Made by a program: the position numbers and the translations under genes
DNA from: Escherichia phage naswa
Strand: one strand, 5' to 3'
Sequence record: MN850595.1
DNA: 64,000 bases
Shown here: one piece after another, positions 51,288 to 55,946 of the stretch
How the letters are laid out: every line of letters starts with the position of its first letter
How positions within the stretch are numbered: position 1 is the stretch's first letter
The notes under the pieces: model-generated
The model's database searches: none
The model's input: only the letters and a program-made list of their open reading frames with translations
Told to the model about the DNA's origin: nothing

Positions 51288-51397
51288 TGTTGCACCCCCT
51301 CTTCATCTTCATGATGTTTCTTTTCACGCTTGTGTTTTTTCTTAAGCTCAAGCGCAATCTCTTTCTTGTACGCCTTCTTCAAGGCTTTTTTAGCCAT
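51284..51397 (-). CDS. Small lysine-rich basic peptide (37 aa), not in ORF track
   Basis: ATG 5 nt after GAGGAGGTG RBS, downstream of consensus promoter; MAKKALKKAYKKEIALELKKKHKREKKHHEDEEGVQQ. Confidence 0.4.
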   Translation of the reverse strand: MAKKALKKAYKKEIALELKKKHKREKKHHEDEEGVQQ

Positions 51398-51426
51398 TTG
51401 GCACCTCCTCTGCTTTCATTACGACA

Positions 51427-51456
51427 ATTATAACCGACTTAACAAAGCTTTGTCAA
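51427..51456 (-). promoter_or_regulatory. Sigma70-like promoter on minus strand (TTGACA-18-TATAAT)
   Basis: Reverse-complement consensus hexamers just downstream of nrdG. Confidence 0.55.
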
Positions 51457-51459
51457 CGA

Positions 51460-51933
51460 TTAGTCAACCTGAACCCAACCATCTGCTACCTTTTTAAACA
51501 TTCTTTGGTTATCACTGCCTCTAAAGGGTTTTTTGGTGGGGTTATCTTTTTCGTACTTACCGTCCATAATGTAATCAACACTATCTTTAATGTAATCGGG
51601 GACTTCTTCAAACAAATACCCTGTGTACACCCAGATAGTTTTTGTGTTGCCGAAGTGTTCACGGATAGCGCGAATGATCGAGTACATACCATCAATATTG
51701 TAAGGCGCTAAAGGTTCGCCACCGCATAATGTAACGCCAGTAATGTGTTTCGGCTCTATAGAGTGAAGTATACTCTCAATAGTGTCATTTGTTAACGGTT
51801 CCCCTTTAGCTGGTGACCAAACACTTTTGTTTTGGCAACCGACGCAGTGATGTGGGCAACCAGAACAGAACACCGTTGTCCTAATGCCTGGGCCGTCAAC
51901 CATGCTACACTCTATAATATTAACAACATTCAT
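51460..51933 (-). CDS. nrdG: Anaerobic ribonucleotide reductase activating protein (radical SAM)
   Basis: DGPGIRTTVFCSGCPHHCVGCQN motif. Confidence 0.8.
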   Translation of the reverse strand: MNVVNIIECSMVDGPGIRTTVFCSGCPHHCVGCQNKSVWSPAKGEPLTNDTIESILHSIEPKHITGVTLCGGEPLAPYNIDGMYSIIRAIREHFGNTKTIWVYTGYLFEEVPDYIKDSVDYIMDGKYEKDNPTKKPFRGSDNQRMFKKVADGWVQVD

Positions 51934-52166
51934 TCCTTATCCTCTTTTAGGTAAGGATATTCAGGCCCACAATAAGCTCTATCCAAGAAAACAGCTTCTT
52001 CCCCTCTGGAATCAGTAGATCTATAATACCCATCACCATGGTAACTAACGAACCAGTGGCACCCATCATCGCTTTCTACTGTTGTGGCTCTGTCCGAATG
52101 AAAGATAATTTCGTAATCCTTACCGAATGTAAACCATCTGTTAGCTTTTACACAGACACCTATCAT
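51930..52166 (-). CDS. Hypothetical protein
   Basis: 78 aa ORF, ATGA overlap with nrdG. Confidence 0.45.
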   Translation of the reverse strand: MIGVCVKANRWFTFGKDYEIIFHSDRATTVESDDGCHWFVSYHGDGYYRSTDSRGEEAVFLDRAYCGPEYPYLKEDKE

Positions 52167-52317
52167 AAGGAACCTCTCTTCTGTGATGTGCTTCTATTCA
52201 AGATAAACCTATAAAAGTCCATTTGATGAAGCCGTATAACTTTTTATACTTACGCTTCAGTGCTAACAATTTTATCTTGATTTTCTTGATAGATTTCCGC
52301 ATTTCGACCCCTTATGC

Positions 52318-52434
52318 TTATAAGTACTCCGCATCGCATTCAGGGCAATGCCAAATAAAATCGTCCAGTGCCTTGCACCAACGAAGATTGCAACGACAAC
52401 CACACTTGCAAATTTTATAAATACCTGATGACAT
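52318..52434 (-). CDS. Small Cys-rich zinc-ribbon peptide (38 aa), not in ORF track
   Basis: ATG after GGAGG RBS; CKCGCRCN...CPEC pattern. Confidence 0.35.
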   Translation of the reverse strand: MSSGIYKICKCGCRCNLRWCKALDDFIWHCPECDAEYL

Positions 52435-52486
52435 ACTGCACCTCCTTAGTTAATAGCATGTTTAAGATATGCATATCTTTCTACAA

Positions 52487-53419
52487 TCATTTACCACAAA
52501 TCTTCTTGTATACCTCTTCTACCGTGTCAAACACTTCAGGCCTGTAGTAGAAAAACTCAGTGCTACCGTCAAATTTTACAGGAAAGTTTATTTTATACTT
52601 GCTCAAGGCCTTATGCACAGATTTTTCTAAATCTACCATGTTTTGAGTTGATCCGCTCCATGTTTTTACTACGTGAAGAGTGTGGACACCTGCGCCAGAT
52701 TTACGAGCACTGTTAAGCACCTCATTTTTCCTCCTGTGCATTTTAACGCATACACCGATTTTCATAAGTGTTGGCACTTCTAAGTCATCAACCATAATGT
52801 AGAGTTTACCGTACTCATGAGATAAGAATCCATTTTGTGCGCATTTACAGCAGCCACGACCACTTTTTAGGTTATTAGGTTTAGCAGACCACTTATACCT
52901 ACAAATTTTGCACCTACATTGCACTTTTGTGTTATCATTGGCAATTTTCTCTAATATTTCTATGTCTGGGTTGGCTTTGTGGATAATTGCAGCGTGCTCC
53001 TTATGGGTTAACGCTTGACTTTTCCCACGTCTTAAGTCATAGCACTCTGGGCAGCCGTTTCTTTGGTATAAGTGGTTTTCAGGGTATTGTTCAAACACAC
53101 CGTGTTCAGGGCAAACAATTTTTACAGGCGTTCTCATGTTCGCATATTTGACTAATGAGTAATCGTACTTGTCCCCATGAACAGCCATAGCCTCTTTTAT
53201 GAACTCTTCAGTGTTCTTTTTCGCTGACCCACCACACCTTGGACAACCATGATTCTTGAAAGCATGTGCCACAGGGGTTTGCCAGAACTCACCGTGCTCA
53301 GGACAAATTATACACACAGGTGTCTTGTTGTTTTTATACTCCACTTTGAAGTAATCATATTTGTCACCATGTATAGTCTGAGCTTTTTCTATAAACTCTT
53401 CGGTTGTTAGTCTTCTCAT
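52487..53419 (-). CDS. Putative homing endonuclease-like protein (tandem zinc-binding modules + T5orf172-like C-terminal domain)
   Basis: Three repeats of IHGDKYDY...CPEHGxFxQxP..H....GCPxC; C-terminal KIGVCVK...GSTEFF resembles T5orf172 domain; sits between nrdD and nrdG. Confidence 0.5.
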   Translation of the reverse strand: MRRLTTEEFIEKAQTIHGDKYDYFKVEYKNNKTPVCIICPEHGEFWQTPVAHAFKNHGCPRCGGSAKKNTEEFIKEAMAVHGDKYDYSLVKYANMRTPVKIVCPEHGVFEQYPENHLYQRNGCPECYDLRRGKSQALTHKEHAAIIHKANPDIEILEKIANDNTKVQCRCKICRYKWSAKPNNLKSGRGCCKCAQNGFLSHEYGKLYIMVDDLEVPTLMKIGVCVKMHRRKNEVLNSARKSGAGVHTLHVVKTWSGSTQNMVDLEKSVHKALSKYKINFPVKFDGSTEFFYYRPEVFDTVEEVYKKICGK

Positions 53420-53532
53420 TACCAGACCAGACCCTTCCGCTATTCACTTTATATTGCATACTATAGAAAAGAGGAATAGAAGTCAATAAAAACAAAAAAA
53501 AATGAGAGCATCCTTGCTCTCCACCTCTTTCC

Positions 53533-55671
53533 TTATTTACTCAACGGACAACAGTCTACATTCCCAACATGTTTAACACGTTCGATAACCTCTGCTTGTT
53601 TACCTGTGTTATACGGCCTACTGTTCGGGCTGGAGAGATAGCCAGACACTCTTCGGATCACTGAGATATATTGTTCATCGTGGCATCCGCACGCAGGGCA
53701 GCAGAACCCTTTAGCTGTTGCACTGAACTCACCAGAGAAACCACACTTGAGACATTTATCCACAGGTTGGTTAATACCAAAATACATAATGTGTTTATAC
53801 CCGAAGTCAACAAGAGCCTCTAAAGCATCAAGGTTGTTTTTCAGGTTAGGTGTCTCTACGTATCCGATGTTGCCACCGGAGGAGATCATAGCAAAACCTT
53901 CCTCATACTCCCACTTATCAAAAGGAGAGCTATTGATCCATACTGGCTGATGGAAACTGTTGGTGAGATATTCATGCTCGTGCTTTAACACTTCTGGATA
54001 TTCACGATCCAGACAGGTTGCAGCTTTATAGCATAGACTCTCAGAAGGAGTGCCGTACAAGCTAAATGCTAGTCTACTTTCCTTCTTGTATCGCTCACAA
54101 GCATCTCTCATGTGCTGAAGGATTCCAAGAGCTAAAGCCTTGTCACCTTCTCTGCCCAAAATCTGACAGGTTTCATACACACCAATGTACCCAATGCTGA
54201 TGGAAGCGTACCCGTCATAGAAGAGTTTATCAATACTTTCTTCAGGATCCAGGCGAGCAAGAGCGCCTTCACACCACATGATGGGGTTCTGCCCTGCCTT
54301 TGTTCCTTTTAGACGGTTAACCCTTACAAGGTGAGCCTCGTATGCAAGATCCAAGTATTCGTCAAGAACTGCAAAGAAATCAACACCTTCCGTCTTAGCT
54401 TTTGCCGCAATCATTGGCAGGTTAAGGCTAACAACGCCTAAGTTAAATCTGCCAAGGTATTTCTCCTCGCCTGTTTCCAAGTCATTGTATTTGCTAAGAA
54501 AACTCCTGCAACCCATGCTAGTTACTTTGCCATCTGTCGAGCCTGTCACTTTTCTATTTAGTGGTACAGATACGAAGTCAGGATAGATACGTTCTGCACA
54601 GCATTCCAGAGCTAATCGTTTCAAATCATAGTTAGGATCCCCAGGGTTCATGTTGACACCCTCTTCCAGGAAGAACAGCACTTTAGGGAACACAGGTGTG
54701 ATACGTTCTTCACCAAGACCCATTTTGTGGACTTTCAGGTAGTTTTTGGTAATCATTCTACCAAAGACCGAGGTATCCAGTCCTAAACTCAATGTGATGA
54801 ATGGAGTTTGCCCGTTGACAGAAGTTAACGTGTTGATTTGATAGAGCAAAGTCTGCATGCTGTCAAATACGTCTTTATCTGTCATTTGCATTGCAACAGT
54901 TTCAGCATCCGGCAACCAATGTTCCTGGCAAAATTTAAGGTTCTTCTCATAGGTTGCTTCAGCATACTGTGCCAGATAATGATCAATATGGCTCATAGTC
55001 TGACCACCATATTGAGCACTAGCTACCGCACTAGAGATTTGGCTAAGGATTGTTGTTGCAACCCCTATTGACTTCGGCTTACTGACATGGGCGTTACCAA
55101 TGTTGAATCCGTTTTCCAACATATCTGGATAATTTACCAAACAACAGTTTGTTAACGGACTGATCAAGTAGTCAAGATCATGCACATGGATGAATCCTTT
55201 ATTGTGCTCTTCGGAGACACGGTCTGGCAGGATCTGTGTTGATGCAAGGTGTTTGCTAAGAATACCTGCAAGCAGGTCGCGATGAGTGTGTACATGATTA
55301 GTAGGCTTATTTGCGTTTTCTTTTGTAAATTCATCACAAGTTCGATCCAAGAAGCCACTAATATCTGCAAGCAGTTTTCCACCTGCCTCTCTGTTATTAT
55401 CTCTTGTCTGTCTATACTGGATGTATTCTCTGGCTGCACATTTTAAACCCATATCCATAAGAGCATCTTCAACAAGGATATGGATATTTTTTACAGAGAT
55501 CGTGCACTGGTCGGTTGGTAGATTGTTAGCAACAACTTCATTAACCGCGCAGGCGATCCGGTAAGCTTCTTCTTCAGTATGTCCAGACTCAAGTAAGGCG
55601 GACTCTGCCGCCTTGATCACCTTAATTCCGTTATAGAACTCTTCTCTACCGTCCCGTTTTACAACTTTCAC
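53533..55671 (-). CDS. nrdD: Anaerobic ribonucleoside-triphosphate reductase (class III)
   Basis: N-terminal ATP-cone MKVVKRDGREE; C-terminal Cys cluster CLKCG...CCPACGC and glycyl-radical region RRVSGY. Confidence 0.85.
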   Translation of the reverse strand: MKVVKRDGREEFYNGIKVIKAAESALLESGHTEEEAYRIACAVNEVVANNLPTDQCTISVKNIHILVEDALMDMGLKCAAREYIQYRQTRDNNREAGGKLLADISGFLDRTCDEFTKENANKPTNHVHTHRDLLAGILSKHLASTQILPDRVSEEHNKGFIHVHDLDYLISPLTNCCLVNYPDMLENGFNIGNAHVSKPKSIGVATTILSQISSAVASAQYGGQTMSHIDHYLAQYAEATYEKNLKFCQEHWLPDAETVAMQMTDKDVFDSMQTLLYQINTLTSVNGQTPFITLSLGLDTSVFGRMITKNYLKVHKMGLGEERITPVFPKVLFFLEEGVNMNPGDPNYDLKRLALECCAERIYPDFVSVPLNRKVTGSTDGKVTSMGCRSFLSKYNDLETGEEKYLGRFNLGVVSLNLPMIAAKAKTEGVDFFAVLDEYLDLAYEAHLVRVNRLKGTKAGQNPIMWCEGALARLDPEESIDKLFYDGYASISIGYIGVYETCQILGREGDKALALGILQHMRDACERYKKESRLAFSLYGTPSESLCYKAATCLDREYPEVLKHEHEYLTNSFHQPVWINSSPFDKWEYEEGFAMISSGGNIGYVETPNLKNNLDALEALVDFGYKHIMYFGINQPVDKCLKCGFSGEFSATAKGFCCPACGCHDEQYISVIRRVSGYLSSPNSRPYNTGKQAEVIERVKHVGNVDCCPLSK

Positions 55672-55946
55672 TTTTTCTCTCCAAAACCATTCTTAACAAA
55701 AGAGATGAAATCGTCGGCACCGCCTATATGGACACTGTCAAGATCGCTTTCTAAGAAGATCTGCGGCAACGTTCTGGGGACAATTGGACTGCACTTCTCA
55801 ATAAGCTCTTCTTTTGTGTAGCCCTCGCCAAGTGTCTTATATACAAAAGGCAGACCTTTGCTGATTGCAAATTCTTTTGCTCTGACACAATGTGGGCAGT
55901 TATCCTTACCGTAAATGATGATGAAAAAAGATTTTTCGCAGCTCAT
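55668..55946 (-). CDS. Glutaredoxin-like protein
   Basis: CPHC active-site motif in IIIYGKDNCPHCVRAKEF; GGGAG RBS. Confidence 0.7.
   Translation of the reverse strand: MSCEKSFFIIIYGKDNCPHCVRAKEFAISKGLPFVYKTLGEGYTKEELIEKCSPIVPRTLPQIFLESDLDSVHIGGADDFISFVKNGFGEKK

Follow-up and report, generated by a model that had tools for sequence, protein, structure and literature searches.

Among the genes of the nrd operon, the 64,000-nt stretch of Escherichia phage naswa analysed here (sequence record MN850595.1; this whole stretch is called the window) contains an open reading frame (ORF) for a protein of 310 amino acids (aa) between nrdD and nrdG. The original prediction had described a homing-endonuclease-like gene at this position, which was thought to have invaded the operon together with two small ORFs of 38 and 78 aa as an insertion covering 51930-53419. 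We conclude that positions 52452-53707 probably represent a mobile cassette of about 1.26 kb, which is built around a free-standing homing endonuclease gene. As judged from sequence comparisons, the mobile unit (~1256 nt) consists of a foreign 3' tail of nrdD, a putative terminator, a putative promoter and the endonuclease gene. It extends about 175 nt into nrdD and leaves out 51930-52451, thus replacing the interval initially proposed. The idea of a mobile invasion of the nrd operon therefore stands for the 310-aa gene, but not for the 38-aa ORF, the 78-aa ORF or the boundaries. The parts of the cassette are as follows:

53533-53707, minus strand: foreign 3' tail of nrdD, left arm of the cassette (codons ~655-712; from the breakpoint and the linkage to carriers)
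53495-53521, minus strand: hairpin GAGAGCA-AGGA-TGCTCTC with T-run, resembling an intrinsic terminator (scan and RNA folding; right after the nrdD stop)
53458-53486, minus strand: sigma-70-like putative promoter TTGACT-17 nt-TAGTAT (scan; upstream of the endonuclease gene)
52487-53419, minus strand: 310-aa putative homing endonuclease gene, free-standing and intact in the window (Pfam, PHROGs)
52452-52486, minus strand: 3' untranslated end of the cassette, 35 nt, with the palindrome AGATATGCATATCT (junction alignments)

Boundaries and Content of the Cassette

The region matches 121 records of rV5-like phages (genus Vequintavirus) and is 99.9% identical to the Escherichia phages A51.2 and inoa. 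A total of 19 loci were compared in 20-nt windows. The window differs from the phages with an empty site by 0-3 mismatches per 20 nt up to nrdD nt ~1960 and by 4-10 per 20 nt from there to the end of the gene, which places a sharp breakpoint at nrdD nt ~1965, with identities of 95-99% upstream and 60-70% downstream. The first diagnostic difference lies at window position 53707. Within the foreign tail lie the codons for the second zinc-ribbon CxxC of NrdD, for the glycyl-radical motif RRVSGY and for the C-terminus ...KHVGNVDCCPLSK, whereas the rV5-type tail ends with ...KHYGSCGC. Every carrier of the window allele that was examined base by base contained the divergent tail at 98-100% identity, and a search with the tail recovered the same 18 records that carry the allele, the full tail being found in none of the phages that lack the endonuclease. 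At the other end, homology to the empty-site phages restarts at ~52451, shortly before the 38-aa mini-ORF and its Shine-Dalgarno sequence, and this right junction is common to the alleles of JEP1, ECML-10 and phiWec189. In phage rV5, 67 nt take the place of 1118 nt of the window (52452-53569).

Because the 310-aa gene starts 113 nt past the nrdD stop codon and no group I intron or RNA family was matched by Rfam in 51300-55800 at E<=1, we regard it as free-standing rather than intron-encoded; no paralogue of it was found in the 64-kb window. The hairpin and T-run recur at the matching position in the uncultured relatives L022 and L025, and the TTGACT -35 element is kept at the promoter position in both. 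The structure of the leader RNA was unremarkable overall (z-score -0.86). The length of the T-run (53495-53503) varies from about 5 to 14 T among the carriers, and so does that of the GGTCTG repeat which separates the weak Shine-Dalgarno sequence from the ATG of the endonuclease gene (53420-53440), A147 having an additional imperfect copy, GGTATG. Variation of both lengths could tune the expression of the endonuclease.

Filled, Empty and Alternative Alleles

The comparison of the nrdD-nrdG interval among the ~121 related phages revealed a presence/absence polymorphism at one precise site, with junctions resolved to the base. The window allele is carried by 18 records at 98-100% identity, whereas the site is empty and contiguous in about 92 and occupied by other alleles in about 8, namely JEP1, Mangalyan, ECML-10, phiWec189, O157 typing phage 14, SophiaRose, WalterGehring and nom. 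The gene is thus far from universal, and the prediction of a homing-endonuclease-like gene at this location was borne out. In the empty-site phages, the nrdD stop is followed by TTGACA, a small hairpin (GCCACAAGGATGTGGC), TATTGT or TATTAT, a Shine-Dalgarno sequence and the ATG of the 38-aa ORF, and the resulting promoter TTGACA-17-TATTGT straddles the junction. In the other alleles, the insertion separates the -35 box/hairpin of this mini-ORF promoter from its -10 box.

The nuclease domains encoded at the site share 55-76% amino-acid identity across the alleles, which also vary in the number and order of their zinc modules. Designating modules of the DUF723 type as A and those of the CapR type as B, the order is AAB in the window and WalterGehring alleles, ABA in JEP1, AAA in phiWec189, AAAA in SophiaRose and ABBB in ECML-10. 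One module subtype ('KTCKDKVEIICNTCG') occurs at position 1, 2 or 3 depending on the allele.

Signs of Movement

The tail of the window (W type) and that of rV5 (r type) are separated by 46 diagnostic sites. JEP1 shows 40 W-type sites before switching to the r type, and in SophiaRose and nom the first 26 sites are of the W type and the remainder of the r type, which yields mosaic nrdD tails with breakpoints at about nt 2030 and 2072. All haplotypes bearing W sequence share an identical left edge and the first ~70 nt. Clean haplotype switches of this kind are what gene-conversion tracts of differing length would be expected to leave. Because it is the segment common to all converted haplotypes, we propose nrdD nt ~1965-2030, which codes for the zinc-ribbon CxxC immediately preceding the glycyl-radical motif, as a candidate target or immunity region.

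The 26-site W pattern of SophiaRose and nom is also present in Murica, which has an empty site and no endonuclease. Murica (L020) and about a dozen other empty-site phages contain only the first ~70 nt of the W tail (26 of 46 sites). The W patch in these phages may be left over from gene conversion when the cassette was once encountered, or may represent a target variant that is resistant.

The distribution of the cassette disagreed with the similarity of the flanks: ime and Phage203, which lack the endonuclease, share 98-99.6% identity with the window in the flanks, while the carriers VB-EcoM-WM, navn and D1 show only 92-97% identity in the flanks and 98-99% in the cassette. The foreign nrdD tail linked to the gene and the mosaic tails point to co-conversion of the sequences adjoining the gene. 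Two of the nine carriers examined (eight relatives and the window) have broken copies of the endonuclease gene: the CM1 copy has gained an A at nt 794, causing a frameshift upstream of the E288 codon, and the PMBT16 copy has lost 11 nt at nt 34-44. Taken together, the recombinant tails, the two frameshifted copies and the flank-discordant distribution fit homing by gene conversion, as far as it can be read from the sequences.

Orthologues were also detected between nrdD and nrdG in two uncultured phage contigs (135-141 kb), with 75% and 59% amino-acid identity; these contigs are ~69-75% identical to vequintaviruses. The endonuclease gene, the C-terminal NrdD peptide of the window, the terminator and the TTGACT layout are all present in L022 and L025. 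Among isolated phages, no record beyond the 18 carriers was found as a donor of the full foreign nrdD tail. Because the tail of the window is 63-82% identical to those of L022 and L025, and therefore about as distant from them as from rV5, the direct donor is unsampled.

Domains, Fold and Conserved Residues of the 310-aa Protein

The original prediction had assigned, by eye, three zinc-binding-like modules and a T5orf172-like C-terminus to the 310-aa protein, and a search with hidden Markov models showed this architecture to be correct, with zinc-finger and T5orf172 profiles matching above their cut-offs. Pfam reported DUF723 twice (E 4e-13; 49.5 bits, cut-off 20.9), the CapR homology domain (E 8e-10; 39.3 bits, cut-off 24.2) and, overlapping the latter, the DUF4379 treble-clef zinc finger (E 3e-9; 37.5 bits, cut-off 24.5). 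The T5orf172 family (PF10544) matched aa 207-307 over profile positions 4-100 of 101 (E 1.6e-7; 32.2 bits, cut-off 20), and PHROGs assigned the protein to phrog_681 'endonuclease' (E 9e-64). We therefore classify the gene as a putative homing endonuclease gene of the T5orf172/GIY-YIG type. Its domains are encoded as follows:

53234-53419, minus strand: zinc module 1, aa 1-62, DUF723 type, with Cys36/Cys39 and Cys59/Cys62
53042-53233, minus strand: zinc module 2, aa 63-126, DUF723 type, best Pfam stretch aa 86-126
52841-53041, minus strand: zinc module 3, aa 127-193, CapR (aa 157-194)/DUF4379 (aa 150-195) type, with CRCKIC...CCKC
52490-52834, minus strand: T5orf172 nuclease domain, aa 196-310, GIY-YIG fold, with GKLY207I, MK220IG222, R230, H269 and E288

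Each zinc module contains a CxxC-type knuckle and a C-x2-C knuckle providing paired Cys ligands, and module 2 is 53% identical to module 1. Mutation of all four zinc-finger cysteines of CapR abolished its DNA binding (PMC8096241). The AlphaFold model of the full-length protein reached a predicted local distance difference test (pLDDT) score of 85.6 and that of the isolated C-terminal domain 93.5, the latter showing a GIY-YIG alpha/beta fold. The matches of this domain were all GIY-YIG nucleases, with PD-T4-3, Eco29kI, T4 EndoII and UvrC-N at lower ranks, except for a few interspersed mitoribosomal, glutaredoxin and CRISPR-protein chains.

The first motif of the protein is GKLY207I, and K220, G222, R230, H269 and E288 are invariant in 34 homologues. 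Judged by motif position rather than residue-level superposition, R230 and E288 would be the counterparts of the Arg and Glu that are required in I-TevI (R27/E75) and in Odn (the Glu being E180). Odn is a T5orf172 nuclease with conserved catalytic Arg and Glu, the Glu mutant E180A of which was used in its study (PMC8263062). The ratio of nonsynonymous to synonymous substitutions (dN/dS) was 0.14 between the 310-aa gene and its 75%-identical orthologue in L022. With only the C-terminal domain as the query, 20 homologous proteins were retrieved, a number limited by the word index of the search. Phages mEp013 and mEp021 as well as E. coli genome assemblies contain relatives with a single module (CapR plus T5orf172, ~175 aa), which share 60-68% identity in the nuclease domain.

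Proposed Mechanism and Alternative Explanations

In the scenario that we favour, the 310-aa protein would bind DNA via its three tandem zinc-finger modules (DUF723, DUF723 and CapR-like) and cut it with the C-terminal T5orf172 domain of the GIY-YIG superfamily. During co-infection with an empty-site relative, the enzyme would cleave the DNA of the latter within or close to the 3' end of nrdD, or else in the spacer between nrdD and the mini-ORF. Repair of the break from the carrier genome would then copy in the endonuclease gene together with the terminator, the promoter and a variable length of the nrdD tail, and the tail of the carrier, differing by 30-40%, would protect it against self-cleavage.

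Several points weigh against this scenario. That the protein cleaves DNA, where its target lies, that the tail confers immunity and that homing takes place are inferences, and so is the direction of the change (insertion versus deletion). In the literature consulted, nuclease activity is on record for one T5orf172 protein, Odn (PMC8263062), and the members of the family are treated as putative homing endonucleases (PMC10448857). The base-level comparison covered 21 of the ~121 related genomes. The Shine-Dalgarno sequence of the 310-aa gene is weak and badly spaced, so its expression is uncertain. The other alleles at the site retain the rV5-type end of nrdD, and a target within that tail can therefore not hold for all of them. 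Finally, the foreign tail could stem from one old recombination event with a divergent relative and have spread afterwards by ordinary recombination, with no involvement of an endonuclease.

The protein may alternatively be a domesticated or re-purposed nuclease or DNA-binding protein which does not home actively, and which either represses or tunes the nrd promoter displaced by the gene, as I-TevI autorepresses and CapR represses, or attacks competing phages or satellites, like Odn. CapR indeed acts as a repressor (PMC8096241) and Odn is an anti-satellite nuclease (PMC8263062). Moreover, the 310-aa gene overlies the region with the promoter of the mini-ORF/nrdG unit, shows purifying selection and occupies the same position in distant relatives, and the authors of PMC10448857 caution that sequence alone cannot establish homing. 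We still consider such a role unlikely: about three quarters of the close relatives do without the gene, two carriers have frameshifted copies, linked mosaic nrdD tails would be unexpected of a mere regulator, and the full conservation of the nuclease-type residues argues against a pure DNA-binding role. It also appears quite improbable that the gene has occupied the nrdD-nrdG interval since ancestral times and was deleted in most vequintaviruses, with loss and ordinary homologous recombination creating the polymorphism. The orthologues at the same position in two distant uncultured lineages, accompanied by the same tail, terminator and promoter, imply that the arrangement is old somewhere in the wider group. 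However, within Vequintavirus the gene-linked nrdD tail differs by 30-40% from that of the other ~100 genomes, as compared to 95-99% identity in the remainder of nrdD, which indicates a foreign import rather than retention. In addition, the empty sites show a clean, conserved promoter without deletion scars, and flank identity does not group the carriers as mutual closest relatives.

The initial proposal of a single mobile insertion of 51930-53419, comprising the endonuclease gene and the 38-aa and 78-aa ORFs, has the adjacency of these ORFs as its sole support and is hardly credible any more. It is refuted by the presence of the 38-aa ORF in all 121 relatives, including every empty-site phage, and by the independent distribution of the 78-aa ORF, which occurs without the endonuclease in rV5, APCEc02 and ime and is missing next to it in I29, navn, CM1 and D1. 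Returning to the mobile cassette of 52452-53707, we tentatively suggest an extension of the model, which is less likely to be true than not: at least seven diverged T5orf172 alleles might compete for the nrdD/mini-ORF junction, each with its own target variant, and the ~70-nt W patch would be a target-immunity allele that spreads even without the endonuclease, as in Murica. If this is true, the allelic series and the matched target variants could be used to derive the DNA-recognition code of the CapR and DUF723 modules.

Small ORFs beside the Cassette

The ORFs named in the original prediction were all found on the minus strand at the coordinates given there, and the ORF list contained an additional one of 34 aa that had not been mentioned:

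52318-52434, minus strand: 38-aa Cys-rich ORF (mini-ORF)
52198-52302, minus strand: 34-aa ORF
51930-52166, minus strand: 78-aa ORF

The 38-aa ORF has its own Shine-Dalgarno sequence, which is identical, like its ATG, in filled and empty phages, and its dN/dS was ~0.075 (13 distinct sequences). Because it is present in all relatives and under purifying selection, it is best regarded as a resident, selected mini-gene of the vequintavirus nrd operon. The same observations rule out that the peptide is a remnant or cargo of the endonuclease, and it does not belong to the insertion as initially assumed. In phages without the 78-aa ORF, its stop codon overlaps the nrdG start by 4 nt, and the two genes are coupled in translation. 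The protein contains seven Cys and one His (MSSGIYKICKCGCRCNLRWCKALDDFIWHCPECDAEYL), and might serve the anaerobic reductase or its activase as a metal-binding partner. An exhaustive HMMER search gave matches essentially limited to the vequintavirus group, and Pfam yielded nothing credible at E<=10 for the 38-, 34- and 78-aa ORFs. The annotated gp109 of rV5 (L001, 2373-2600) has 75 aa and overlaps the end of nrdD; it appears to be an over-extended call of the mini-ORF, the conserved ATG of which lies further downstream, behind an AGGAGG Shine-Dalgarno sequence.

The 78-aa ORF was found in about 32 vequintavirus records and, as homologues of 55-67% identity, in Rtp-like siphophages. Its variation independent of the endonuclease removes it from the insertion as well. 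The 34- and 78-aa ORFs (51930-52302) are absent from I29, navn, CM1, D1, VB-EcoM-WM, JEP1, ECML-10, phiWec189 and SophiaRose; rV5, APCEc02, ime and others contain them, regardless of whether the endonuclease is there. From these patterns, we interpret the two ORFs as a separate accessory segment outside the cassette which co-varies with a divergent 5' part of nrdG. This second, independent dimorphism (51460-52302; L003, L005-L011 and L014) consists of either both ORFs with the window-type nrdG, or neither ORF with another nrdG. The first ~75% of nrdG in the ORF-less haplotype cannot be aligned to that of the window, whereas the last quarter aligns at 82-87%.

Setting of the Locus

The cassette and the small ORFs are flanked by two reductase genes:

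53533-55671, minus strand: nrdD, 712 aa (Pfam NRDD, Gly_radical and ATP-cone)
51460-51933, minus strand: nrdG (Pfam Fer4_12 and Radical_SAM)

The nrdD gene of the window is uninterrupted. In several relatives (L004, L005, L009, L010, L019 and L022), nrdD is interrupted by insertions with HNH endonuclease ORFs, one site being located after nrdD nt ~860 and another further downstream; two interruptions are present in navn. The nrd locus is a hot spot for multiple elements. SophiaRose contains a second gene of the 'GIY-YIG nuclease family' just past phoH (L008, 1-414), where the window has none. Furthermore, about 19 GenBank records labelled 'UNVERIFIED: Campylobacter phage' (MG0656xx, host Campylobacter jejuni) match E. 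coli vequintaviruses at 97-98% identity in this region and are placed in Vequintavirus by NCBI. Their host labels look doubtful.

Significance of the Site

The family of these genes and its preference for ribonucleotide reductase loci have already been published, and the gene by itself adds little. In GenBank, it is labelled 'phage T5, ORF172 domain containing protein' or 'T5 ORF172 domain protein', and a sister allele 'putative homing endonuclease'. What the ~120 close genomes contribute is a mobile unit defined at base level, the zinc-ribbon/glycyl-radical part of nrdD dragged along with it, a candidate region of ~70 nt and an allelic series. The site thus offers a convenient system for a first direct homing test of a T5orf172 enzyme and for studying how modular fingers read DNA. 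It also provides a warning that nrdD is unsuited to vequintavirus phylogenies, and the annotation of the small ORFs is corrected.

Comparison with Known Systems

The nrdD-nrdG interval had been named as a known insertion site for mobile endonuclease genes, in agreement with T4-like phages: the nrdG/nrdD interval of T4 holds the HNH gene mobC, which is replaced by the GIY-YIG gene segH in some relatives, and mobE is located between nrdA and nrdB (PMC2988022). The cassette of the window resembles these genes as a selfish nuclease between anaerobic reductase genes which is variably present and associated with flanking co-conversion (PMC2988022). It differs from them in nuclease family and architecture, the T4 Seg proteins having an N-terminal GIY-YIG and a C-terminal DNA-binding domain, an order that is reversed here. 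Moreover, seven free-standing endonuclease genes of T4, including mobC and mobE, have no promoter of their own (PMC2988022), whereas the window cassette brings a terminator-like hairpin and a putative promoter. Compared to I-TevI and the GIY-YIG superfamily (Slx1, UvrC-N, Eco29kI and T4 EndoII), sequence identity is limited to 8-13%, the second motif reads K-I-G instead of Y-I-G, which is typical of T5orf172, and the gene is not intron-encoded.

Module 3 is a zinc finger of the same type as PLE CapR, and the nuclease domain is of the T5orf172 type like that of ICP1 Odn. Both of these relatives have been re-purposed: the nuclease domain was lost from CapR, and the DNA-binding domain of Odn is of the RepA_N type. 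Unlike in these cases, nothing at the window locus points to a satellite-related role of the 310-aa gene.

Genes that combine a T5orf172 domain with repeated CapR/DUF723/DUF4379 fingers are known from the literature as putative homing endonuclease genes of phages; they are enriched near essential genes, including those for ribonucleotide reductase, and undergo module shuffling (Barth, Dunham & Seed 2023, PMC10448857). The 310-aa gene belongs to this already described phage family of selfish nuclease genes, making it a real but fairly ordinary finding. As in the ICP1 gp165/gp174 type, N-terminal zinc-finger repeats are followed by a C-terminal T5orf172 domain, the gene is free-standing beside ribonucleotide reductase genes, and its alleles vary in the number and order of modules; the similarity to the ICP1 genes is confined to the zinc modules (~31% over aa 10-136). 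In contrast to that type, the host group is the E. coli Vequintavirus phages, which are not mentioned in PMC10448857, and, in contrast to the systems treated there, base-level resolution is reached here for the empty site, the foreign nrdD tail linked to the gene and the recombinant tails.

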